DNA of 52,938 nucleotides from Eubacteriales bacterium (GCA_045593965.1 JAZNXP010000157.1:1-52938), one strand, 5' to 3'; shown: positions 26,633-37,500, numbered from the stretch's first letter. The notes: generated by a model not told the origin, from the sequence alone. Made by a program: numbers and translations.

Positions 26633-28393
26633 TTATTTATACAAACCGCGCTTTACGTAGCTGGTGTGCAGGATCTCGTGTGCCTTATGGCTGTTGGGAG
26701 CTCCGAAGAACTCGTCATACAGCTTCTGCACCGCGAGGTTATCCTGGGACTTACGCAGCTCGTCGTTTGCGTCGTCGTTGTACAGAACGGCTGCGCGAAC
26801 TGCACGCAGATCCATGTTCATGCGAACGCTTGCGGGCTGAATCGGCTGACCGCCACCGTTGACGCATCCGCCGGGGCAACCCATGATCTCGATGAACTGA
26901 ACGTCAAGCTCGCCTGCCTTCACCTTGTTCAGAAGCTCCTTCGCCTTACCCGTGCTGGATGCAACTGCAACGTTAACGGTAAGATCGCCAAGCTTATAGG
27001 ATGCGGTCTTGATGCCTTCTACGCCACGAACCTCGTTGAAGTCAACCTTCTCCAGCTTCTTGCCGAGAATGACCTCTGCAGCATAACGGAGAGCAGCCTC
27101 CATAACGCCGCCGGTTGCGCCGAAGATTGCGCCTGCGCCCGATCCGATCGCAAAAGGATCGTCAAACTTCGCTTCCTCAAGAGCGCGGAAGTTGATGCCT
27201 GCCTTCTTGATCATTCTGCCGACCTCACGCGTGGTGATCGCGTAATCAACGTCGGGAACACCTGCTGCGGACTGTCCGTCACGTCCAACCTCGAATTTCT
27301 TCGCGGTACAAGGAATTGCGGAAACCATCACGATATCCTTGGGATCCCAGCCCATCTTCTGTGCGTAGTAGGTCTTAACAACTGCGCCGAACATCTGCTG
27401 AGGAGACTTGCAGGTGGAAAGGTTATCCACAAATTCCGGGAAGTAATGCTCGCAGTACTTGATCCATCCGGGAGAGCAAGAGGTGATCATCGGGAGAGCT
27501 CCGTTGTTCTGAATTCTGCCCAGAAGCTCGTTTGCTTCCTCAACGATGGTAAGGTCTGCGGTCAGGTTCATGTCATATACGCCGTCAAAGCCGAGTGCCT
27601 TAAGTGCCGCAACCATCTTGCCCTCGCAATCGGTGCCGGGCTCATAGCCGAAGCATTCGCCGATCTGTGCGCGAACGGAAGGAGCGGTACAAATAACAGT
27701 ATGCTTCGTAGGATCTGCGATTGCAGCGAATACACCGTCGGTATCGTCTCTCTCATAAAGAGCACCAACAGGGCAAGCTACGATGCACTGTCCACAGTTG
27801 ATACAAGAGGTCTCAGCCAGTGCTTGCTCGAATGCGGAACCGATGTAGGTATCAAAGCCGCGGTTGTTTGCGCCGATAACGCCAATCTGCTGTACCTTTG
27901 CGCAGGTTGCTACGCAACGGCGGCAAAGTACGCACTTGCTGTTGTCACGGATGATCGGAGTCTTGTCGTCGATCTCGTACTGATTTACTTCACCTACAAA
28001 GCTGGAGGAATTTACGCCGTACTCACGGCACAGCGACTGCAACTCACAGTTGGTGGAGCGTACGCAGGAGAGACAGTCCTGATTGTGGTTGGAGAGCAAC
28101 AGCTCAAGGTTCATCTTGCGGGATGTAGCGATCTTGGGCGTGTTGGTCTTGATCTCCATACCCTCGGTGCAAGGATACACGCAAGCAGTAACCATACGCC
28201 AAGGACCAAGTGCGGGACCGCGCATTTCCGCAACCTCTACAAGGCACAGACGGCATGCGCCGATCTCGTTGATATCTTTCAGATAGCAGAGCGTCGGAAT
28301 ATCGATGTGCGCTGCTTTAGCGGCTTCCAGAACCGTGGAACCCTTGGCAACGGAATATTCCGTGCCGTTAATTTTTACTTTAATCATATCCAT
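26633..28393 (-). CDS. hydA: [FeFe]-hydrogenase catalytic subunit (M3 architecture, bifurcating-type HydA)
   Basis: N-terminal 2Fe-2S, His-ligated 4Fe-4S and two ferredoxin-type CxxCxxCxxxC(P) motifs. H-cluster motifs are TSCSPGW (variant of TSCCPxW), IPCTAKKFE, and EIMGCPGGCVNGGGQP. Confidence 0.92.
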   Translation of the reverse strand: MDMIKVKINGTEYSVAKGSTVLEAAKAAHIDIPTLCYLKDINEIGACRLCLVEVAEMRGPALGPWRMVTACVYPCTEGMEIKTNTPKIATSRKMNLELLLSNHNQDCLSCVRSTNCELQSLCREYGVNSSSFVGEVNQYEIDDKTPIIRDNSKCVLCRRCVATCAKVQQIGVIGANNRGFDTYIGSAFEQALAETSCINCGQCIVACPVGALYERDDTDGVFAAIADPTKHTVICTAPSVRAQIGECFGYEPGTDCEGKMVAALKALGFDGVYDMNLTADLTIVEEANELLGRIQNNGALPMITSCSPGWIKYCEHYFPEFVDNLSTCKSPQQMFGAVVKTYYAQKMGWDPKDIVMVSAIPCTAKKFEVGRDGQSAAGVPDVDYAITTREVGRMIKKAGINFRALEEAKFDDPFAIGSGAGAIFGATGGVMEAALRYAAEVILGKKLEKVDFNEVRGVEGIKTASYKLGDLTVNVAVASSTGKAKELLNKVKAGELDVQFIEIMGCPGGCVNGGGQPIQPASVRMNMDLRAVRAAVLYNDDANDELRKSQDNLAVQKLYDEFFGAPNSHKAHEILHTSYVKRGLYK

Positions 28394-28413: not shown

Positions 28414-30231
28414 TTATTGCTTGGAAATAGCTTTGAACTTACACGTGGGCATACAAGCACCGCACTTCACGCACTTCGCAGGATCAATGGTGAAGGATGC
28501 CAGCTTATGTCCGGGAGCGATGTAATCGGTTCTCGTGATCGCGGATGCGGGGCAGTTCTTTGCGCACATGCCGCAACCGATACACTTATCTGCATCAATG
28601 GTGAACTGAAGCAGTCCCTTGCATACGCCTGCGGGACACTTCTTGTCCACAATATGAGCGATATACTCTTCTCTGAAGTAACGCAGAGTGGAGAGAACGG
28701 GGTTCGGAGCAGTCTGTCCCAGACCGCAGAGAGATGCGGATTTGATATAATTGGAAAGCTCTTCCAGACGGTCCAGATCCTCAAGCTCACCCTTACCCGA
28801 AATGATCTTATCCAGAATTTCGAGCAATCTCTTCGTACCAACGCGACAAGGAGTACATTTACCGCACGACTCGTCAACGGTGAAGTCGAGGAAGAAACGC
28901 GCGATATCAACCATGCAGTTGTCCTCGTCCATAACGATCAGTCCGCCCGATCCCATCATGGAACCGATTTCCAGCAGGTTATCATAGTCAATGGGAGTGT
29001 CGATCAGGTGTGCGGGAATGCATCCGCCGGAAGGTCCACCCGTTTGAGCAGCCTTGAACTTCTTGCCGTTCGGGATACCGCCACCGATCTCCTCGATGAT
29101 GTGACGCAGAGTCGTTCCCATAGGAACCTCAACCAGACCCGTGTTCTTGATCTTACCGCCAAGCGCGAATACCTTCGTACCCTTGCTCTTCTCGGTACCC
29201 ATGGATGCGAACCAATCGGCACCCTTGAGAATGATTTGAGGAATGTTTGCATAGGTCTCAACGTTGTTCAGAACCGTAGGACGGTCGAACAGACCCTTGA
29301 CTGCGGGGAACGGAGGACGGGGACGGGGCTCGCCGCGCTTACCCTCAATAGAGGTCATCAACGCAGTCTCCTCACCGCACACGAATGCGCCCGCACCGAG
29401 ACGGATATCCAGATCGAAATCGAAGCCGGTCTCAAAAATATTCTTACCGAGCAAGCCGTACTCGCGTGCCTGGTTGATCGCGATCTGCAAACGGTTAACT
29501 GCGATCGGATACTCTGCACGAACGTATACGTAACCCTGATTTGCGCCGATCGCGTAGCCTGCGATCGCCATTGCCTCGATCAATGCGTGGGGTTCACCCT
29601 CCAGCACGGAACGGTCCATAAACGCACCCGGGTCACCCTCGTCTGCGTTACAGCAAACGTACTTCTGTACGTTTCCGCGGTTACCCGAAGCGAACTTCCA
29701 CTTCATACCCGTGGGGAAGCCTGCGCCTCCGCGTCCGCGAAGTCCGGAATCCAGAATGGTCTGGATAACCTCATCGGGAGTCATCTCGGTAAGGACCTTA
29801 CCCAGAGCTGCATAACCGTCCATTGCGATGTACTCTTCAATGTTCTCGGGGTCGATTACGCCGCAGTTACGAAGCGCGATACGAAGCTGAGACTTATAGA
29901 AGGTAGTATCGTTCAAGGAAGCATTCTCGGGAGTGTGGTCTCCGCTGGTCTCGTTGTAAACCAGTCTTTCAACAACACGTCCCTTGAGCAGATGCTCGCT
30001 GACGATCTCTTCAACGTCCTGCTCGGTAACGTTGCTGTAGAACGTACCGTCGGGATAGATGATAACGACCGGTCCGAGTGCGCAAAGACCGAAACAACCT
30101 GTCTGAACGACCTTTACCTCTTCAGCAAGTCCTTTCTTCGCAATCGCAGCCTCAAACGCTGCCTGGATCTTCGGGCTTCCGGAAGATGTACATCCCGTAC
30201 CGCCGCAACATAATACATGTGAACGAATCAT
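28414..30231 (-). CDS. hydB: NuoF-like flavoprotein subunit of the hydrogenase (HydB/HndC type)
   Basis: 605 aa. N-terminal thioredoxin-like 2Fe-2S region, FMN/NADH-binding core (GRGGAGFPTGMKW), and two C-terminal 4Fe-4S motifs (CIGCGMCAKNCP, CVKCGACMPTC). Confidence 0.92.
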   Translation of the reverse strand: MIRSHVLCCGGTGCTSSGSPKIQAAFEAAIAKKGLAEEVKVVQTGCFGLCALGPVVIIYPDGTFYSNVTEQDVEEIVSEHLLKGRVVERLVYNETSGDHTPENASLNDTTFYKSQLRIALRNCGVIDPENIEEYIAMDGYAALGKVLTEMTPDEVIQTILDSGLRGRGGAGFPTGMKWKFASGNRGNVQKYVCCNADEGDPGAFMDRSVLEGEPHALIEAMAIAGYAIGANQGYVYVRAEYPIAVNRLQIAINQAREYGLLGKNIFETGFDFDLDIRLGAGAFVCGEETALMTSIEGKRGEPRPRPPFPAVKGLFDRPTVLNNVETYANIPQIILKGADWFASMGTEKSKGTKVFALGGKIKNTGLVEVPMGTTLRHIIEEIGGGIPNGKKFKAAQTGGPSGGCIPAHLIDTPIDYDNLLEIGSMMGSGGLIVMDEDNCMVDIARFFLDFTVDESCGKCTPCRVGTKRLLEILDKIISGKGELEDLDRLEELSNYIKSASLCGLGQTAPNPVLSTLRYFREEYIAHIVDKKCPAGVCKGLLQFTIDADKCIGCGMCAKNCPASAITRTDYIAPGHKLASFTIDPAKCVKCGACMPTCKFKAISKQ

Positions 30232-30249: not shown

Positions 30250-30624
30250 TTATGCTTTCTTGGCAGATCCGATCGTGTATTCCTCCACGATCTTGCCGCC
30301 CTTGATATGCTCTGCAAGCACTTTTTCTGCTTTTTCAGCAGTCATCTTAACGTAGGTCACCTTCTCCTTACCGGGTTGAACGACCTCCACGATCGGCTCA
30401 TACTGGCACAGACCGATGCATCCGGTCTGGCTGACGGTTACCGTGTTGTTAAGGTTCTCGCGGTTTACGCCCTCCACAAAAGCGTTGAGTACGGGACGTG
30501 CGCCGGCTGCAATTCCGCAGGTAGCCATACCTACTACGATACGAGTATCGTTGGTACCCTCACGAAGAACGACCTTGTCCTTCATTTTGTCTCTGATTGC
30601 AGCAAGTTCTGCCAAAGATTTCAT
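30250..30624 (-). CDS. thioredoxin-like [2Fe-2S] ferredoxin (HndB/HydD-like)
   Basis: 124 aa. Cys pattern ...MATCGIAAG...QTGCIGLCQYEP... is typical of this family. Lies directly upstream of the nuoF-like gene. Confidence 0.8.
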   Translation of the reverse strand: MKSLAELAAIRDKMKDKVVLREGTNDTRIVVGMATCGIAAGARPVLNAFVEGVNRENLNNTVTVSQTGCIGLCQYEPIVEVVQPGKEKVTYVKMTAEKAEKVLAEHIKGGKIVEEYTIGSAKKA

Positions 30625-30649: not shown

Positions 30650-31216
30650 TTATAAATTATTATTTTGATTACTGTATTGCTCCCGCAAATATTCCGCGAT
30701 CCATTGGATCACCTCGGGGGTATTCGGCGGGACGTCCGCCCCCAGAATCTGCCGCACCTCCCTCATGTCCAGCTCCGCAACGGTCTGACCGCTGACAGTG
30801 TGCCGAAACAGAAGGTTGATATCGGGACTCCCCTGGATCAGAGTTGTCACCGTGGAAACGATGTCTCCCATCGGAGTGCAATCGATGTGCGACGTATCGA
30901 ACGTTGCGACCACTTCCGTTCCATGTGTTTCCGCATACTCGGATTCATGGCGCGACGTGATCGTGACCGAGCCGCCCGTTTGCTCCGCCGCGAGCTTGAG
31001 AAGCGGAATTCCCATTCCCACCTTTCGCGTCGTGCGCGTGGTACAGAACGGATCGACCACGCTCTTTAAAAATTCGGGCTTCATGCCGCAGCCGTTATCC
31101 GCCACGGTCAATTGCAGCATGTTCTCGGTTTCATCCAACAGAATTTCGATCCGATCGGCTTTCGCCTTGACCGAATTCATGGCGATGTCCAGCACATTCA
31201 AAGAAAGCTCTTTCAT
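30650..31216 (-). CDS. stand-alone histidine-kinase-like ATPase (HATPase_c) protein
   Basis: N box LDIAMNSVKA, G1 DNGCGM, G2 GMGIPLL. No HisKA or sensor domain. ATGA overlap with the PHP gene. Confidence 0.75.
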   Translation of the reverse strand: MKELSLNVLDIAMNSVKAKADRIEILLDETENMLQLTVADNGCGMKPEFLKSVVDPFCTTRTTRKVGMGIPLLKLAAEQTGGSVTITSRHESEYAETHGTEVVATFDTSHIDCTPMGDIVSTVTTLIQGSPDINLLFRHTVSGQTVAELDMREVRQILGADVPPNTPEVIQWIAEYLREQYSNQNNNL

Positions 31217-31953
31217 GTGTTCTCTCCTTTCAAGTGCCGAAACAGTTGTTTTCTTACAAATGCTCCGCTATACGGCTCGTCCTCCAGCTCCAGAAAATGC
31301 TCCGCATCCCGAATGTCCCATAAATAGTGCGCATCCGAGCTTACCAAAAGCTCCGCTCCTTTCAGATTGGGATACCGATCACGAAATTCTTCTTTTCTGT
31401 TTCCGTCATGCAACTCCGCGATCGCATACGGCGGATCGTCAGGAAAGCTTCCGAGCGTCGCAATGACGCCGTTCGCGTCCCGATCGATATGCGCGGGATA
31501 GCAGATCCCACCGTAGCAGGTCACAAAATCCTTTGCTTCATCGTATGAGATCAAGGTTGCATTGGAGAGCAGGTCTTTTTCAATTCCGATCTCCTCATCC
31601 TCTCCGTTCATCAGGATCTGATCTCCGAAAATATCGGTTCTGTTTGGAATTCGGATCCTTCTTTCGTCCACCGCATCGTTAAAACGCAACGCGTCCTCCA
31701 GATGCTCGAACAAGCAAACGATGTGAATATCCTCTGCCGTTGTCAGCTCCATTCCCGCCACGGGAATGATCCCCGCCTTCTTTGCCGCCTCGAAAAACGC
31801 GGGGCAATTTCTGCAGGAATTGTGGTCTGTCAACGCAACGATCTGCAATCCCGCCAACGCCGCCATGCCCGCGATGTTATTCGGCGTCATGTCGTTGTCG
31901 GCACAGGGGGACAAACAGGAGTGAATATGAAAATCGTAATAATAGCGGTTCAT
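31213..31953 (-). CDS. PHP-domain (polymerase/histidinol phosphatase-like) metallo-phosphoesterase
   Basis: YYDFHIHSCLSPCAD, ALTDHNS, and further His/Asp motifs. ATGA overlaps on both sides. Confidence 0.8.
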   Translation of the reverse strand: MNRYYYDFHIHSCLSPCADNDMTPNNIAGMAALAGLQIVALTDHNSCRNCPAFFEAAKKAGIIPVAGMELTTAEDIHIVCLFEHLEDALRFNDAVDERRIRIPNRTDIFGDQILMNGEDEEIGIEKDLLSNATLISYDEAKDFVTCYGGICYPAHIDRDANGVIATLGSFPDDPPYAIAELHDGNRKEEFRDRYPNLKGAELLVSSDAHYLWDIRDAEHFLELEDEPYSGAFVRKQLFRHLKGENT

Positions 31954-32279
31954 CGATCGATGCTTGTCAATTCTTTGACAAGCTCGTACGCGGTCAGGTC
32001 GCTCGTGAGAACGTTGATGCCCTTTTCCTTTGCGGTGTTGATCGCGTTTTCATCCAACGTGACTCCCTCCGCCAAAAGGATCGCCGCAACGTCTGTCAAC
32101 GCCGCCACCGCGATGATATTGATGTTGGACATAATGGTGATCCAGAGATTATTCGCCTCTGCTCTACCCATTACCCAACTGAGCAGATCTCCGATATAAA
32201 CGCCGTCGAATTCCCGATCGCCCTTCGGCAATGCAAGAGCGCGCAGGGAGAGCTTTTCCGATAATTCCGAAACCGTCAT
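31950..32279 (-). CDS. DRTGG-domain protein
   Basis: 109 aa. Resembles the small DRTGG-family proteins seen next to Fe-hydrogenase genes. The start ATG directly abuts the stop of the upstream gene (TAAATG). Confidence 0.6.
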   Translation of the reverse strand: MTVSELSEKLSLRALALPKGDREFDGVYIGDLLSWVMGRAEANNLWITIMSNINIIAVAALTDVAAILLAEGVTLDENAINTAKEKGINVLTSDLTAYELVKELTSIDR

Positions 32280-33575
32280 TTACCGTTCCTCCTCCGTTTC
32301 TTCCTTGCCGCCCTTCTGCGCATCAAAGAAACGACTCTTTTCGACCACACAGCCGTCTCTTGGCGCGATTCCGCGAACCACATCCTCCGCAAACGCGCGG
32401 CAGTTTGGCGCTCCGCAAGCACCGCAGTCGATCCCCGGCAGCTCTGCGCGCAGCTTCTGGATGTCCGCCATCATTCTAAGAGACTCTCCGAAATTCTCGC
32501 TCAAGCGCTGGATCGGCAGGTAAGTCGGCATTTGATCAAAGAAATACGTTTGCGGAATATATTCCTTCTGATCCCCCTGCAAAAACGTTTGCGAAACAGG
32601 AAGATACCGACGCAAGGTCTGTAATCTTGCCTTGGCTACAAAAGGATTTTCCACCGCCATCACGCCGCCCACGCATCCTCCTGGACAAGCGTTCAGCTCA
32701 ATAAACTCAAGGGATTGAATGTTTCCGTTCTCCAGCTGATCCAATACGCGGTTGACGTTATCGATGCCGTCTGCCGCAAGATATTTATCGTTGAAGATTG
32801 CGGAGGATTCTCCCCCCGAGGTCGCCCAGCTGATTCCGATCATGCCGGACTTTGATATCGGCGTCGGAGTTTGTCCGCGCCTCATTACATTAATTAAATT
32901 GAAGTAAACATCGCTGACGGATACGACCTCGTCGATCTCGCTCTGATAATCTCCAAATCCGTTTTTGATGTAGCTCACCTTTGCGGGACACGGAGAAATA
33001 AAACAGATGCAAATATCCTCATCCTTCAGTTCGGGATGCTCCCTGTGCGCCTTCTCGCGCGCCAGCTTTGCCGCGATCTCCATCGGAGGCAAGAGCTGCA
33101 TGATGTGCTCGCGCAAGGTCGGGTAACGCAGAGAGATCAACCGCAGCACCACGGGACACGCCGAGCTGATCACGGGCTTGACGATCCCTTCGGTCTTGAG
33201 ATACAGTCTCGTATATGCGGAAACAAGCTCCGCCGCCTGCGAGACCTCGACCACGTCGTCAAAGCCAATGTCGAGCAGTCCCTGCAGGACGTAATCCACG
33301 TCCTCCAGCTCCTCGAACTGACCGTACAGTGTCGGTGCGGGCAATGCTACCTTCCATTTATACTTCATAACGGCATCCAAGCGGCTGTATTCCGCTTTTT
33401 TTGCGTGATTCGGACAGTTCCGAATACAGATGCCGCAATCGATACATCGGTTTGGATTGATCTGCGCATGACCTTCATGAATGCGGATCGCTTCGGTCGG
33501 ACAATGCTTCAAGCAGGTCGTACAACCCGTACACCGATCTACCTCAAGGGAAACCGAATGTTCATAAGCATTCAT
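32280..33575 (-). CDS. HydS-like (putative sensory) [FeFe]-hydrogenase homologue: 2x[4Fe-4S], H-domain-like region, C-terminal CX2CX4CX16C
   Basis: CTGCTTCLKHCP and CIDCGICIRNCP. H-cluster-like motifs ISSACPVV, ISPCPAKV and ELNACPGGCVGG (the GGGQP tail is absent). C-terminal CGACGAPNCRAFAEDVVRGIAPRDGC. Confidence 0.8.
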   Translation of the reverse strand: MNAYEHSVSLEVDRCTGCTTCLKHCPTEAIRIHEGHAQINPNRCIDCGICIRNCPNHAKKAEYSRLDAVMKYKWKVALPAPTLYGQFEELEDVDYVLQGLLDIGFDDVVEVSQAAELVSAYTRLYLKTEGIVKPVISSACPVVLRLISLRYPTLREHIMQLLPPMEIAAKLAREKAHREHPELKDEDICICFISPCPAKVSYIKNGFGDYQSEIDEVVSVSDVYFNLINVMRRGQTPTPISKSGMIGISWATSGGESSAIFNDKYLAADGIDNVNRVLDQLENGNIQSLEFIELNACPGGCVGGVMAVENPFVAKARLQTLRRYLPVSQTFLQGDQKEYIPQTYFFDQMPTYLPIQRLSENFGESLRMMADIQKLRAELPGIDCGACGAPNCRAFAEDVVRGIAPRDGCVVEKSRFFDAQKGGKEETEEER

Positions 33576-33606
33576 CGTCTTGTTCCTTTTCCGCCGAAAT
33601 CGGGAT

Positions 33607-34029
33607 TTACAGATTGACCGTCATCAAAATGCGTGTTCCCTCGCCCGGCTTTGAATCGATTTGCATAGAATCTGTATATCTCTTCATGTTCGGAAGTCCC
33701 ATTCCCGCGCCAAATCCGAGAGAACGGATGGTGTCGGGCGCGGTGGAATATCCCTCCTGCATGGCAAGAGATATGTCGGCAATACCGGGACCGTGGTCAA
33801 CGAGCAGGAGCTCGATACGATCTTCATAGATCAAAACGTCCGCTTCGCCGCCGCCCGCGTGTATCACCATGTTGATCTCCCCCTCGTACATTGCGATCGA
33901 TACCTTTCGGATGATCTCGGGAGAAATTCCCAGCTGACGCAAGCTCTTCTTCACCTGCACGGACGCCTGCCCCGCAGACGTGAAATCCGCTCCGTCAACC
34001 TGGAAGTGGAATTTTACCGCTTCCTTCAT
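33607..34029 (-). CDS. RsbW/SpoIIAB-like serine kinase / anti-sigma-type HATPase protein
   Basis: 140 aa: ...AMYEGEINMVIHAGGGE...VDHGPGIADI...GFGAGMGLPNMKRY... ATG 34029 overlaps the upstream stop (ATGA). Confidence 0.7.
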   Translation of the reverse strand: MKEAVKFHFQVDGADFTSAGQASVQVKKSLRQLGISPEIIRKVSIAMYEGEINMVIHAGGGEADVLIYEDRIELLLVDHGPGIADISLAMQEGYSTAPDTIRSLGFGAGMGLPNMKRYTDSMQIDSKPGEGTRILMTVNL

Positions 34030-34379
34030 GATACAGCTCCGTTTCCGCCCAGTCCGTTTGCATAAAGCTTTCCGCAAGCCTCATACATCCGCTTGCCCGT
34101 TTTCAGCAATGCGATACCGTGCTGGTTCGCCAACGCGATCATTTCTTCCGTGGGACATTTTGAACGCACGAAAACAATGCAGACCATGTCCATCATCATG
34201 GCTGTCCGCACAACCTGCGGATTGACAAGTCCCGTCAGAAGGACTGCCTGATCCTTGACGTATGCCAATACATCACTCATCATGTCGCTTCCGCATGCGG
34301 AACCGACCTCACGGTCCATGTATTCCTCGCCGCAGATCACGTCCGCATTCAACAATTCCTTGATTTTCTCGATCTTCAT
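34026..34379 (-). CDS. DRTGG-domain protein
   Basis: 117 aa, with an LLTGL core in place of DRTGG. Paralogous in size and layout to 31950..32279. Confidence 0.6.
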   Translation of the reverse strand: MKIEKIKELLNADVICGEEYMDREVGSACGSDMMSDVLAYVKDQAVLLTGLVNPQVVRTAMMMDMVCIVFVRSKCPTEEMIALANQHGIALLKTGKRMYEACGKLYANGLGGNGAVS

Positions 34380-34412
34380 ATGGCTGTCCCTTGCCCTTTC
34401 GATGTAGAAAGA

Positions 34413-34907
34413 TTATTTATATTTTGCGAGAATGGAATCAACGTCGTCAACCGTCAATTTTCCATATACCTCGCCGTTCACCGTCAATACGGGAGCCAGA
34501 CCGCACGCACCGATGCAACGGGTTGCCTCGATGGAGTATTTTCCGTCGGGAGACGTGCTTCCGATCGGAACGTTCAGCTTCTGGGAAATCGCTTCGATGA
34601 TGTCACCCGATCCCTTAACGTAGCATGCAGTTCCCAAGCATACCGCGATCGCGTACTGACCGTCGGGATTGAGCTTGAACTGTGCATAGAAGGAGACAAT
34701 TCCGAAGATCTCCTCCAAAGATACGCCTGTCTTCTCGGCAATGATCGTCTGCACTTCAATCGGCAGATAACCGTAGATCTCCTGTGCTTCCTGCAGAATG
34801 GGCATCATTGCGCCACGCTGACCGGCATGCTTTTCGATCACGGCAAGCAGCTTTTCTTCCTGCTCCTTGGTTCCGTGAAAATCGACCGTGGTCAATTTCT
34901 TTTTCAT
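34413..34907 (-). CDS. hydC: NuoE-like [2Fe-2S] subunit of the hydrogenase (HydC/HndA type)
   Basis: 164 aa from ATG 34907 (TAGGAGG RBS). Cys motif ...CLGTACYVKG...ATRCIGACGLAP... Confidence 0.88.
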   Translation of the reverse strand: MKKKLTTVDFHGTKEQEEKLLAVIEKHAGQRGAMMPILQEAQEIYGYLPIEVQTIIAEKTGVSLEEIFGIVSFYAQFKLNPDGQYAIAVCLGTACYVKGSGDIIEAISQKLNVPIGSTSPDGKYSIEATRCIGACGLAPVLTVNGEVYGKLTVDDVDSILAKYK

Positions 34908-35121: not shown

Positions 35122-35139
35122 TTGTTAAAAAATTATCAT
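35122..35139. promoter_or_regulatory. candidate Rex (redox repressor) operator overlapping a candidate hyd-operon promoter
   Basis: TTGTTAA-AAAA-TTATCAT compared with the clostridial Rex consensus TTGTTAA-N4-TTAACAA (left half 7/7, right half 5/7). On the minus strand it overlaps a possible promoter: TTGATT (35161..35156), 18 nt spacer, GATAAT (35137..35132). Confidence 0.35.
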
Positions 35140-35255
35140 TCTTTGCATTTGATCAAATCAATGACCCTTTTATTTTCTTCAAAAAAGTGCGATTTTGGAA
35201 GAAAAACGCAGAAAAATCCGCTTTTTTCGGTCGTCATCGCCTTACGCTCTTTTTC

Positions 35256-35329
35256 TTTGACTTTCTTTGACTTTGACTTTCTTTGACTTTCGATGTATAA
35301 TGAAGTCACAAAGGTCAAAGAAGGTCAAA
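35256..35329 (+). promoter_or_regulatory. three CtsR operators flanking the ctsR promoter
   Basis: AGGTCAAAGAAGGTCAAA at 35312..35329 (direct). Two abutting inverted copies TTTGACTTTCTTTGACT at 35256..35272 and 35272..35288 (complement AGTCAAAGAAAGTCAAA). All match the (A/G)GTCAAA-NAN-(A/G)GTCAAA consensus. Confidence 0.8.
35273..35301 (+). promoter_or_regulatory. sigma-A type promoter of ctsR-mcsA-mcsB-clpC (TTGACT, 17 nt spacer, TATAAT)
   Basis: TTGACT 35273..35278 (inside operator 2), 17 nt spacer, TATAAT 35296..35301. Confidence 0.75.
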
Positions 35330-35373
35330 CAAACCTTCGAATACAATATTTCAGTCACAAAGGAGGATATTTC

Positions 35374-35829
35374 ATGCTTGCGGATTCCATTGCACGCCTG
35401 ATCGAAGAAATGCTCAATGAGGGAGACGGCATTTTGGAGCTTCAGCGAAACGAAATGGCAAATCGGCTCGGATGTGTTCCCAGTCAGATCAGCTACGTCA
35501 TTTCTTCCCGTTTTACACCCGAGCGCGGATATATTATCGAGTCTCGCAGAGGCGGTGGAGGCTGTATCCGCATTGTTCGGAAGCAGCTCTCCCAGCACGA
35601 ATATCTCATGCACGCGTTTTGCTCAATCGGCACGTCGATCGAAGAGCGTGAAGCGGTCGCTTATCTGAACAATTTTCTCGGCAATGGTTTTTTCTCCGTT
35701 GAAGAGGCCGAGCTTGCTTGCGCGGCAATGTCGACAGCGGCGCTTTCCACCCTTCCCCCCCCTCTGCGCGGTACGGTTCGCGCTGATATTTTCAAGCAAA
35801 TTCTACTCCGTAAAATGTCAAGCAAATAA
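35374..35829 (+). CDS. ctsR: class III stress-gene repressor CtsR
   Basis: MLADSIARLIEEMLNE...LGCVPSQISYVISSRFTPERGYIIESRRGGGG.IRIV. AGGAGG 7 nt before ATG 35374. Confidence 0.92.
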   Translation: MLADSIARLIEEMLNEGDGILELQRNEMANRLGCVPSQISYVISSRFTPERGYIIESRRGGGGCIRIVRKQLSQHEYLMHAFCSIGTSIEEREAVAYLNNFLGNGFFSVEEAELACAAMSTAALSTLPPPLRGTVRADIFKQILLRKMSSK

Positions 35830-35935
35830 TTTTTGAATTTCTTCGCATTTACAGAAAATGCGACAACCTTCTCGCTCTCAAAGCGATATAATATAACAAA
35901 ATGATGCCGTCGGCAAGACGGCACGGAAAGGAAAA

Positions 35936-36484
35936 ATGACTATGTTGTGTGAAACATGCAAAAAAAGGACGGCAACCGTCTTTTACAACGAAAATATGAA
36001 CGGCAAGGTCCGTTCTTACTCTCTTTGCGGTGAATGTGCCGCAAAGCTTCGCGAAAAAGGTGAGCTTCAGGATATTACATCCATGATCGGCAGCTTTGCC
36101 GATCCCTTCTCGGATCTGCATAACGAGCTTTTTCAAGGATTTTTCGGTATCCCCACGCAAAAAGCGATCTCCTCGCAGAAGAAATGTCCCGATTGCGGAT
36201 GCACCTATCCCGAGATCGAAAAAAGCGGAAAGGTGGGCTGTCCCTCGTGCTATACGACCTTTGAGGACGAGCTTTCCCCACTGATCCGCTCGCTTCACGG
36301 CACGACCGCTCACGCGGGTGCTGTCCCTTCCCGTCACAGAGCCAAGCAGGCACTCGTTCAGCAGCTCAAGCAGAAAAAAGCCGCTCTGCGGGAAGCGGTA
36401 CAGAATGAAAATTACGAACGCGCCGCCGCTCTGCGCGATGAGATCCGCGCTCTGGAAGCGGATAACGGAAAGGAGAGTAAGTAA
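35936..36484 (+). CDS. mcsA: protein-arginine kinase activator McsA
   Basis: N-terminal Cys pairs (CETCKK...CGEC, CPDCG...CPSC) and a C-terminal UVR motif (NENYERAAALRDEIRALE). Confidence 0.88.
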   Translation: MTMLCETCKKRTATVFYNENMNGKVRSYSLCGECAAKLREKGELQDITSMIGSFADPFSDLHNELFQGFFGIPTQKAISSQKKCPDCGCTYPEIEKSGKVGCPSCYTTFEDELSPLIRSLHGTTAHAGAVPSRHRAKQALVQQLKQKKAALREAVQNENYERAAALRDEIRALEADNGKESK

Positions 36485-37500
36485 TGGCTTGGTATAATAC
36501 AGTCGGCACCGCATCGGATACGGTCATCAGCTCCCGTGTCCGACTCGCCAGAAACATCAACGGCTATCCTTTCGCATCCAAGCTTGATACCGCAGGTGCG
36601 AATGAGATCATCGAAAAAGTCAGCACGTCCCTGGAGTCCTCGGGCTTTCGGAAGATCCATTTTTCCGAGATCTCGCCCATCATGGCAACCTCTTACGTAG
36701 AACGCCATTACGTCAGCCCCGAATTTGCGACCAAGGAAACACCCCACGCTCTGCTTTTGCAGGAGTCGAGCGGTGTTGCGGTCATGGTCTGTGAAGAAGA
36801 TCATCTGCGCATGCAATGCATCCTTCCCGGACTTGCATTGGAGGAAGCGTATAAAAACGCGCAAGGGATCGAGCGTCGTCTGGATGAGGATTTCGATTTT
36901 GCCTACAGTGAAACGCTCGGATACCTGACGCACTGTCCGACCAACCTCGGAACGGGTATGAGAGCATCCGTCATGATGTTTCTCCCTGCCCTGACGCGTG
37001 GAGGATATATGGACGCGCTTGCAAATCAGCTCTCCAAGCTTGGACTTACCGTTCGCGGTCTGTTCGGAGAAGGAAGCGGATCTGCGGGATGCATGTATCA
37101 GATCTCCAACCAGATCACGCTCGGCATTTCCGAGGCAGACACACTCCGCAAGCTTGGAGATGCGGTCGCCCAGATCACCGAAAGTGAAAAAAAGGCACGA
37201 AAAGCCATCACGGGAGATGCGTTTGACCGCTTGACCGACCGAATTCTCCGCAGTGCGGGACTGCTCAAAAGTGCGTATCTGATGTCTTCGTCCGAATTCA
37301 TCAAGCTCTTCGCAGACGTGCGCTTCGGCATCTCTCTCGGATTGATCAGCGATATCTCTTACGAACAGCTCGGCACGTTGCTCGTTGAGGCAATGCCCGC
37401 AACGCTGACGCTTTCCGCAGAAAATACGCCCCGCACGGAGAACGCAAGAGACAAGCTTCGTGCGGAGCGGATCAAGACCATACTCAACACACCTGTATAA
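36484..37500 (+). CDS. mcsB: protein-arginine kinase McsB (ATP:guanido phosphotransferase)
   Basis: CPTNLGTGMRASVM signature. TAATG overlap with mcsA. Confidence 0.93.
   Translation: MAWYNTVGTASDTVISSRVRLARNINGYPFASKLDTAGANEIIEKVSTSLESSGFRKIHFSEISPIMATSYVERHYVSPEFATKETPHALLLQESSGVAVMVCEEDHLRMQCILPGLALEEAYKNAQGIERRLDEDFDFAYSETLGYLTHCPTNLGTGMRASVMMFLPALTRGGYMDALANQLSKLGLTVRGLFGEGSGSAGCMYQISNQITLGISEADTLRKLGDAVAQITESEKKARKAITGDAFDRLTDRILRSAGLLKSAYLMSSSEFIKLFADVRFGISLGLISDISYEQLGTLLVEAMPATLTLSAENTPRTENARDKLRAERIKTILNTPV

Follow-up and report, generated by a model that had tools for sequence, protein, structure and literature searches.

A group D [FeFe]-hydrogenase and five conserved partner genes beside a bifurcating-type hydrogenase of a Eubacteriales bacterium: a candidate signalling set

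A stretch of 52,938 nucleotides (nt) from a Eubacteriales bacterium (GCA_045593965.1 JAZNXP010000157.1:1-52938), here called the window, encodes a bifurcating-type [FeFe]-hydrogenase, and between the structural genes of that enzyme lie six further genes (positions 30,650 to 34,379). They encode two DRTGG-domain proteins (DRTGG1 and DRTGG2), two GHKL-type ATPase proteins (HATP1 and HATP2), a PHP-family phosphoesterase (PHP) and a HydS-like [FeFe]-hydrogenase (HydS). Comparative analysis showed that these genes form a widespread accessory set that is inherited together as a unit, and that the window holds an ordinary copy of it: a regular accessory set of a group D HydS, in a lineage-specific order, next to a HydABC(D) operon. 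The set is physically tied to HydB/HydC-type modules, of hydrogenase or formate dehydrogenase, and sometimes to Rnf; its nucleotide and metal sites are intact and it has no transcriptional output domain. By a modest balance of probability, we take it to be the accessory set of a group D putative sensory hydrogenase, a signalling device that would act on the bifurcating enzyme. HydABC-type enzymes govern the balance of H2, NADH and ferredoxin in gut and rumen fermenters, and their control bears on H2 and methane output. The set, and above all the fusions that occur in nature (HydS::DRTGG, DRTGG::SpoIIAB-like and PHP::ATPase), point to concrete candidate partners for signalling by a sensory hydrogenase that lacks a PAS domain.

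Open reading frame (ORF) calls and Pfam searches of the window identified ten ORFs, all on the minus strand, as one tight cluster from 34907 to 26633, with DRTGG1-HATP1-HydS-DRTGG2-PHP-HATP2 between hydC and hydD/hydB/hydA. The cluster, its domains and its strand are as an earlier note on this DNA, made from the sequence by itself, had described them:

34413..34907, minus strand: hydC, NuoE-like [2Fe-2S] subunit of a HydABC-type enzyme (Pfam 2Fe-2S_thioredx, E=3.7e-48)
34026..34379, minus strand: DRTGG1, small DRTGG-domain protein, paired with the next, kinase-like gene (Pfam DRTGG)
33607..34029, minus strand: HATP1, SpoIIAB/RsbW-like GHKL protein of 140 amino acids (aa) with a complete ATP site (Pfam HATPase_c_2)
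32280..33575, minus strand: HydS-like group D (M2e) [FeFe]-hydrogenase by its features, 431 aa (Pfam Fer4 twice, Fe_hyd_lg_C, C-terminal FeS domain)
31950..32279, minus strand: DRTGG2, second DRTGG paralogue, paired with HydS upstream and PHP downstream (Pfam DRTGG)
31213..31953, minus strand: PHP-family metal-dependent phosphoesterase with a complete metal site (Pfam PHP)
30650..31216, minus strand: HATP2, GHKL ATPase of 188 aa, Bergerat fold followed by about 75 aa of a C-terminal domain (Pfam HATPase_c, HATPase_c_3)
30250..30624, minus strand: hydD, small thioredoxin-like [2Fe-2S] protein in a conserved position (Pfam 2Fe-2S_thioredx)
28414..30231, minus strand: hydB, NuoF-like FMN/NADH subunit with extra Fe-S domains (Pfam Complex1_51K, NADH_4Fe-4S, SLBB, Fer4)
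26633..28393, minus strand: hydA, group A3-type catalytic subunit (Pfam Fe_hyd_lg_C, E=2e-92, and Fe_hyd_SSU)

The structural genes show the features of a group A3 bifurcating HydABC enzyme, namely a HydA with a NuoG-like N-terminus and an H-domain, together with HydB and HydC, in one operon. The best PDB match of HydA was Acetobacterium woodii HydA1 (7Q4V, E=1e-204), and Thermoanaerobacter kivui also matched (8A6T, E=5e-167). The L1 motif of hydA (window 27464-27484) reads TSCSPGW instead of TSCCPxW, which we could rule out as a defect; the motif is normal for the clade, being found in A. woodii HydA1 (7Q4V) and in 119 of 123 HydA sequences linked to the set.

A single-copy PHP orthologue was found in 149 of 401 genomes sampled evenly across the phylum, and a HydB-type gene was present in all 149 of these and in 341 of the 401 overall. 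We surveyed 20 kb around 120 PHP orthologues, classing neighbours with profiles made from the window proteins and telling hydB and hydD apart by ORF length. HATP1 was a neighbour in 116 of these 120 loci, HATP2 in 115, HydS as part of the set in at least 110, DRTGG2 in 105 and DRTGG1 in 95 (plus 10 fused copies), and HydB/HydC lay within 10 kb of the set in 105. The usual order is DRTGG1-HATP1-HydS-DRTGG2-PHP-hydC-HATP2-hydD-hydB-hydA, so that in most lineages the five genes from DRTGG1 to PHP stand upstream of hydC and HATP2 alone lies between hydC and hydD. The window order, with hydC moved to the front, is confined to the window's own bacterial order, and there it was conserved across all ten genes in 80 of 80 loci of related species (uncultured Oscillospirales/Eubacteriales) wherever the contig was long enough. 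An order kept to this degree is far removed from chance. The placement of six genes inside the operon, which the earlier note had emphasized, is therefore real in the window and its relatives and is a local rearrangement, because hydC usually follows PHP. HydS itself has at least 8000 relatives at E<=1e-10 in gut and rumen metagenomes, with identities of at least 81% among the 120 matches listed.

HydB occurred together with an H-domain HydA in 74 of the 120 loci, and in 19 of those rnfCD came after them. In 17 loci HydB/HydC stood with a molybdopterin formate dehydrogenase but without an H-domain HydA; 13 loci had HydB only, and 4 had Rnf without Hyd. None of Hyd, formate dehydrogenase or Rnf was detected within 10 kb in 12 loci, four of which (family f38) have HydB on the same contig at a distance of about 11 kb. 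Pfam annotation of individual loci revealed further arrangements: a set with HydS immediately upstream of rnfC/rnfD (L093); a set without HydS, with a PHP::HATP2 fusion, divergent from hydC-hydD-hydB-fdhA (L091:1173-10910); and a set in which a CBS-CBS::HATP1 fusion stands in place of HydS (L095:9053-12016), followed downstream by DUF134 and P-loop/Fe-S genes and then by rnfCDGEA. This last locus, beside rnf, shows that the sensor is exchangeable, since HydS has given way there to a CBS pair fused to HATP1. What stays constant beside the set is a NuoF/NuoE-like core or some other NADH:ferredoxin enzyme rather than the hydrogenase subunit. Co-occurrence with group A3 hydrogenases, which the earlier note had suggested mapping, did not hold as such; the set tracks HydB/HydC-type modules and Rnf rather than HydA. 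Specificity of the set for hydrogenases was considered and ruled out by the 17 formate dehydrogenase loci, the 4 Rnf-only loci and family f38.

Two side observations concern these loci. The formate dehydrogenase catalytic subunit of L091 is split over two ORFs (355 and 525 aa), perhaps at a selenocysteine codon. In L122, L149, L155, L158, L159, L167 and L175 the cluster stops after hydC-HATP2-hydB, without hydA or hydD, and unrelated genes follow.

These linkages also bear on whether the six proteins are extra stoichiometric subunits of the hydrogenase complex. Tight translational coupling and a conserved gene order speak for such subunits, but the set also stands next to formate dehydrogenase or Rnf, or else at about 11 kb from HydB, and contig depth in metatranscriptomes (see below) over the six genes was far under that of hydA and hydB, although depth is an unreliable guide, as reads of other species gather on conserved parts too. 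We consider this explanation very improbable. The stoichiometric complex with HydABC that the earlier note had suggested from the coupling found no support, and the putative A. woodii homologue of HATP2 has been reported not to belong to the active enzyme (PMC3315566).

HydS encodes two N-terminal [4Fe-4S] motifs with conserved cysteines (C15/18/21/25 and C44/47/50/54), all four cluster cysteines of the H-domain (C140, C196, C297 and C301), and a C-terminal Cx2Cx4Cx16C site (C384/C387/C392/C409) within a Pfam FeS domain at 379-410; no PAS domain was matched by Pfam. In the segment SSA139-C140-P, Ala (A139) takes the place of the proton-relay Cys (CpI C299), in S194-P-C196 M353 is replaced by Ser, E361 is lost (Y202), and K199 and N295 are found at further sites. 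All eight extra HydS cysteines were invariant in the 120-locus survey. Every feature by which Land et al. defined group D (M2e; PMC8163306) fits, and HydS is accordingly placed in this group on the basis of published features and residues. When compared by published features, TamHydS of Thermoanaerobacter mathranii (PMC8163306, PMC13104023) is like it in having two [4Fe-4S] motifs, an H-domain, the Cx2Cx4Cx16C site and no PAS domain, and in the loss of C299 and the change of M353 to Ser. Group D enzymes have been called putative sensors with unknown signalling (PMC8163306, PMC13104023), and Schumann et al. (2026) still called the signalling unknown and reported that H2 does not reduce the C-terminal cluster of TamHydS (PMC13104023). 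The group C (M2f) HydS proteins of Thermotoga maritima and Ruminococcus albus and HfsB of Thermoanaerobacterium saccharolyticum (PMC8924675, PMC11837493, HydDB PMC5037454) likewise have lost the proton-relay Cys, have a C-terminal [4Fe-4S] site and are encoded with signalling proteins beside catalytic hydrogenases. They differ in having PAS domains and PP2C/histidine kinase partners, whereas the HydS described here has no PAS domain and DRTGG, GHKL and PHP partners.

The other proteins of the set were similarly conserved when residues were counted across the 120-locus survey. In DRTGG1 a D32-x-x-S35-D36 motif was found, with each of D32, S35 and D36 present in 97 of 97 sequences, and T49 was invariant too; in DRTGG2 the motif D31-x-x-S34 was invariant (S34 in 106 of 106 sequences), as was T48. 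The N, G1 and G2 boxes of HATP1 were invariant (E49, N53, H57, D78xGxG, G105-G111), and so were N14, D40xGxG and G67xG of HATP2. The PHP protein satisfies the metal-ligand pattern of its family, HxH...DH...E...H...H...DxH, and its metal-site residues H9, H11, D43-H44, E69, H77, H155, E180, D207 and H209 were each kept in at least 99% of 118 sequences. Natural fusions join DRTGG to HATP1 in 10 of the 120 loci (269-279 aa), PHP to HATP2 in 8 (424-438 aa), and HydS to DRTGG2 in 3 (about 565 aa, with DRTGG2 on the HydS C-terminus); the DRTGG::HATP1 and PHP::HATP2 fusions are large protein families that extend to other phyla. These fusions agree with the translationally coupled pairs of the window, which suggests that the proteins form three physical pairs, DRTGG1 with HATP1, HydS with DRTGG2 and PHP with HATP2.

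Fold and family comparisons placed the set at a distance from characterized proteins. A sequence search of solved structures with the six proteins returned only distant matches (SpoIIAB, histidine-kinase catalytic and ATP-binding (CA) domains, BAD_1165 and AF1212); the PDB matches of HATP1 were SpoIIAB only, and the best matches of HATP2 were histidine-kinase CA domains. For none of the six proteins did an NCBIfam model reach its cut-off: HATP1 scored 58 bits against a cut-off of 135 for TIGR01925 and 23 against 145 for RsbW, and all histidine-kinase models fell far under their cut-offs for HATP2. AlphaFold2 models of two fusions were used for fold searches only. In the DRTGG::HATP1 model (predicted local distance difference test (pLDDT) 89.7, predicted template-modelling score (pTM) 0.75), which places the invariant Ser at a helix start, the kinase-like half matched SpoIIAB (TM 0.85, root-mean-square deviation 1.9 A) and also RsbW, and the DRTGG half matched AF1212 and the DRTGG domain in the regulatory region of the Clostridium perfringens CBS-pyrophosphatase. 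In the PHP::HATP2 model (pLDDT 91.9, pTM 0.77), the PHP half matched endonuclease Q (EndoQ), BAD_1165, TM0559, RNase AM and pAp phosphatase, with no PHP-family protein tyrosine phosphatase among the top 50 fold matches of the model, and the HATP2 half matched the N-terminal regions of MutL/PMS2 (170-217 columns) as well as histidine-kinase CA domains.

The sequence matches of HATP2 could indicate classical two-component signalling, in which HATP2 would serve a split histidine kinase as its catalytic domain, with the response regulator encoded elsewhere. However, Pfam detected no HisKA, receiver or DNA-binding domain in the six proteins, just as the earlier note had reported in arguing against a classical two-component output. 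No HisKA, dimerization and histidine phosphotransfer (DHp) or receiver domain was found in the cluster (Pfam) or in the loci read in detail, and HATP2 is fused to PHP, not to DHp, and scores far below the family models. We therefore give a two-component system very little credence. The set lies outside both the SpoIIAB/RsbW and the two-component families, because STAS, sigma factor, DHp and receiver are missing and the scores are under the cut-offs.

The nearest folds and families of PHP (EndoQ, BAD_1165, RNase AM and 3',5'-nucleoside bisphosphate phosphatase) point in a different direction, to control directed at nucleotides or RNA, in which the PHP::GHKL pair would act on a nucleotide signal or the operon mRNA, the DRTGG and CBS domains would bind adenine nucleotides and no protein would be phosphorylated. 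The match of DRTGG to the regulatory region of a CBS-pyrophosphatase and the replacement of HydS by a CBS pair in one variant are consistent with this. On the other hand, the set encodes no cyclase or other nucleotide-signal synthase and no RNA-binding domain (Pfam), identity to the nucleases is low (17-25%), and a SpoIIAB-like member would have no role, so that control of this kind appears improbable.

The similarity of HATP2 to MutL/PMS2-type GHL ATPases, which extends to the Pfam HATPase_c_3 match, could instead suggest assembly, maturation or repair, with the GHKL ATPases as clamps or chaperones and PHP and DRTGG aiding the Fe-S/flavin HydBC core. A precedent comes from the A. woodii operon hydC-hydE-hydD-hydB-hydA1, where HydE (Awo_c27000) is reported not to be part of the active enzyme and its role in assembly or signalling was left open by the authors (PMC3315566). 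This HydE is a GHKL ATPase-only protein whose gene sits between hydC and hydD, where HATP2 is usually encoded in most lineages, and we likened the two by position and description; as described, the A. woodii operon has no HydS, DRTGG or PHP genes, unlike the window. That the set follows the HydB/HydC core irrespective of its catalytic partner, and has no output domain, also favors an assembly role. Against it, the set is present in only 149 of the 341 genomes with a HydB-type gene and so is not needed for assembly generally, HATP1 is specifically like SpoIIAB/RsbW, a signalling fold, and a central sensor-type hydrogenase or CBS pair fits sensing better. We regard assembly as an unlikely function of the set.

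In the signalling interpretation that we favor, the set would resemble the partner-switching systems SpoIIAB-SpoIIAA-SpoIIE and RsbW-RsbV-RsbU in the way it works. HATP1 shares the fold and ATP site of SpoIIAB/RsbW, its partner is a small alpha/beta protein with an invariant Ser at a helix start that is sometimes fused to it, and the set further includes a phosphoesterase gene. Unlike SpoIIAB/RsbW modules, the set has no STAS domain, PP2C phosphatase or sigma factor; the partner has a DRTGG fold, and the phosphoesterase belongs to the PHP family, with nucleic acids or nucleotides as the substrates of its relatives. The set would be an ATP-dependent post-translational signalling device with HydS or a CBS pair as its input. 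HydS, through its Fe-S clusters or H-cluster, may report H2 or the redox state by way of the attached DRTGG protein; the SpoIIAB-like HATP1 and its DRTGG partner may act in the manner of kinase and antagonist, in which the invariant Ser could be a phospho-acceptor; and the PHP-ATPase pair may reset the signal or pass it to the NADH/ferredoxin-converting enzyme. We offer this specific partner-switch scheme with Ser phosphorylation only tentatively, and it may well be wrong in its particulars.

The maturases HydE, HydF and HydG, by which an H-cluster is normally built, were looked for in the window genome (G000, 77% complete), its relatives (G401-G450) and three further genomes (G163, G267 and G085). 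The window genome has two Fe_hyd_lg_C proteins, HydA and HydS only. The H-cluster ligands of HydS are intact, and HydG, HydF and HydE were all missing from this genome in searches with NCBIfam models and in tblastn searches with the maturases of two relatives. Among 50 species genomes with the same ten-gene cluster, HydG was present in 6 and absent in 44, and HydF was present in 5 of the 6 HydG-positive relatives and in 0 of the 44 HydG-negative ones, hence absent from 45 of 50. Neither HydG nor HydF was found in the approximately 24 closest relatives. In a phylum-wide sample of 80 carriers of the set, 53 had HydG and 27 did not, including two single-contig genomes; of the HydG-negative genomes tested, 15 of 15 likewise had neither HydF nor HydE, and 4 of 4 controls had both. 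Genome incompleteness alone is insufficient to account for the absence, because relatives and single-contig genomes show it too. A role of the set in replacing the maturases was ruled out by the 53 of 80 carriers with HydG. Two single-contig genomes with HydA-type genes had none of HydE, HydF and HydG.

HydA active-site motifs were identical in relatives with and without HydG. The ratio of nonsynonymous to synonymous substitution rates (dN/dS) against maturase-less relatives, with dS near saturation, was 0.05-0.09 for hydA, 0.06-0.07 for HydS and 0.03-0.29 for the other scorable genes of the set (HATP2 was not scored). The hydA/HydS cluster is thus intact and under strong purifying selection despite the missing maturases, and the other scored genes of the set are under purifying selection as well. 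In family f38 (five genomes), where the HydS of the set is the sole Fe_hyd_lg_C and H-domain protein of the genome, there are no maturases; all eight HydS cysteines are kept, and the Lys that contacts the 2Fe site is changed to Gln in five sequences from maturase-less genomes. Active [FeFe]-hydrogenases without HydEFG have been reported from archaea and some eukaryotes, and a different pathway was suggested (PMC11216029). In these gut bacteria the absence leaves three possibilities, namely another maturation route, systematic loss of the small hydE-hydG-hydF locus in binning, or function without the 2Fe subcluster. Any of the three makes a simple "H2 sensor" reading weaker for the window. The maturase-less lineage is a real puzzle beside an otherwise ordinary copy, and the link to HydB/HydC rather than HydA, together with HydS in maturase-less genomes, calls the H2-sensing assumption into question. 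A broader idea is that the set is a portable partner-switch of a new type, with DRTGG in place of STAS, the PHP-ATPase pair in place of PP2C and an exchangeable sensor, controlling HydB/HydC enzymes and Rnf at the post-translational level, and that selection on the cluster without HydEFG reflects alternative maturation or HydS acting as an Fe-S redox sensor; we consider this idea doubtful.

Several findings weigh against the signalling interpretation as a whole. HydE, HydF and HydG are missing in this genome and in most of its relatives, so that H2 sensing by an H-cluster is uncertain here, and in TamHydS the C-terminal cluster gives no response to H2 (PMC13104023). Pfam detected neither a STAS domain nor a sigma factor among the cluster proteins, which leaves the SpoIIAB analogy incomplete. 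The closest folds of PHP are nucleases and nucleotide phosphatases, with protein phosphatases not in the top 50, and HATP2 is as similar to MutL-type clamps as to histidine-kinase CA domains. Finally, what ties the five non-hydrogenase proteins to signalling consists of sequence and model data. The earlier note had suggested H2- or redox-dependent post-translational control by phosphorylation and dephosphorylation. A conserved, coupled set without a classical output is consistent with control of this general kind, but the phosphorylation chemistry stays conjectural, because the closest structural relatives of PHP are nucleic-acid and nucleotide phosphoesterases, and H2 as the signal is uncertain without HydEFG.

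Part of this system has been described before. Kinase-like genes are known beside such hydrogenases (PMC8163306, PMC3608648, PMC3315566), which the earlier note had stated for other Clostridia, and the known core comprises the group D hydrogenase and the GHKL-only HydE beside bifurcating hydrogenases, for which the searchable literature offers no mechanism. The neighbours named in the papers on group D are a single kinase-like gene and an "AraC-type regulator"; the DRTGG genes, the PHP gene and the second ATPase gene do not appear there. The window differs from the context that Verbeke et al. gave for all Thermoanaerobacter strains (PMC3608648, citing Calusinska 2010) in that hydC stands ahead, so that the six genes fall inside the operon, and in that its lineage has no detectable HydEFG. 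In the searchable literature we found no mention of DRTGG or PHP genes in the context of a sensory hydrogenase, nothing relevant on anti-sigma factors together with sensory hydrogenases, and no biochemical characterization of the six-gene set, which agrees with the earlier statement that its function is not experimentally defined; on PHP domains and hydrogenases the only item was a Rex site predicted ahead of a PHP gene in T. saccharolyticum.

Expression of the cluster as a single transcript could be followed in part. ATGA overlaps are present at three junctions (DRTGG1/HATP1, DRTGG2/PHP and PHP/HATP2), HydS and DRTGG2 abut as TAAATG, and the remaining junction gaps are 33, 31 and 25 nt, within the 35 nt given in the earlier note, which had also seen no internal terminators; we found no terminator-like sites on the minus strand from 34907 to 26633. 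Four bovine gut metatranscriptomes contained matching contigs, 95-100% identical to the window, that span hydC to DRTGG1 (34036-34518), DRTGG1 to HATP1 (33898-34048), HydS to DRTGG2 (32157-32444), DRTGG2 to PHP (31840-32094) and also hydD to hydB. No contig in these metatranscriptomes crossed HATP1 to HydS, PHP to HATP2 or HATP2 to hydD, and such contigs offer no means to exclude an internal promoter. Co-transcription of the upstream half of the cluster is supported, and that of all ten genes, as the earlier note had supposed, is only partly shown, with five junctions spanned and three without a contig. With the reservation given above, hydD, hydB and hydA had much greater summed contig depth than the six accessory genes, and a separate hydDBA promoter may be present.

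Upstream of hydC two sequence features were found:

35161..35132, minus strand: promoter-like TTGATT-18-GATAAT upstream of hydC
35122-35139: Rex-like palindrome upstream of hydC, overlapping the promoter-like site

In 40 of 69 related loci a Rex-like palindrome scoring at least 11/14 stood upstream of hydC, compared to 4 of 240 random control stretches, which were drawn from the same loci and are mostly coding, so that the AT-richness of intergenic DNA is uncontrolled in this comparison. It seems probable that transcriptional control of the cluster, in response to NADH/NAD+, comes from Rex at this predicted operator and not from the six-gene set. On the plus strand, divergent from the hyd promoter, window positions 35293-37500 hold three ORFs that, by translation only, resemble ctsR, mcsA and mcsB (protein arginine kinase).

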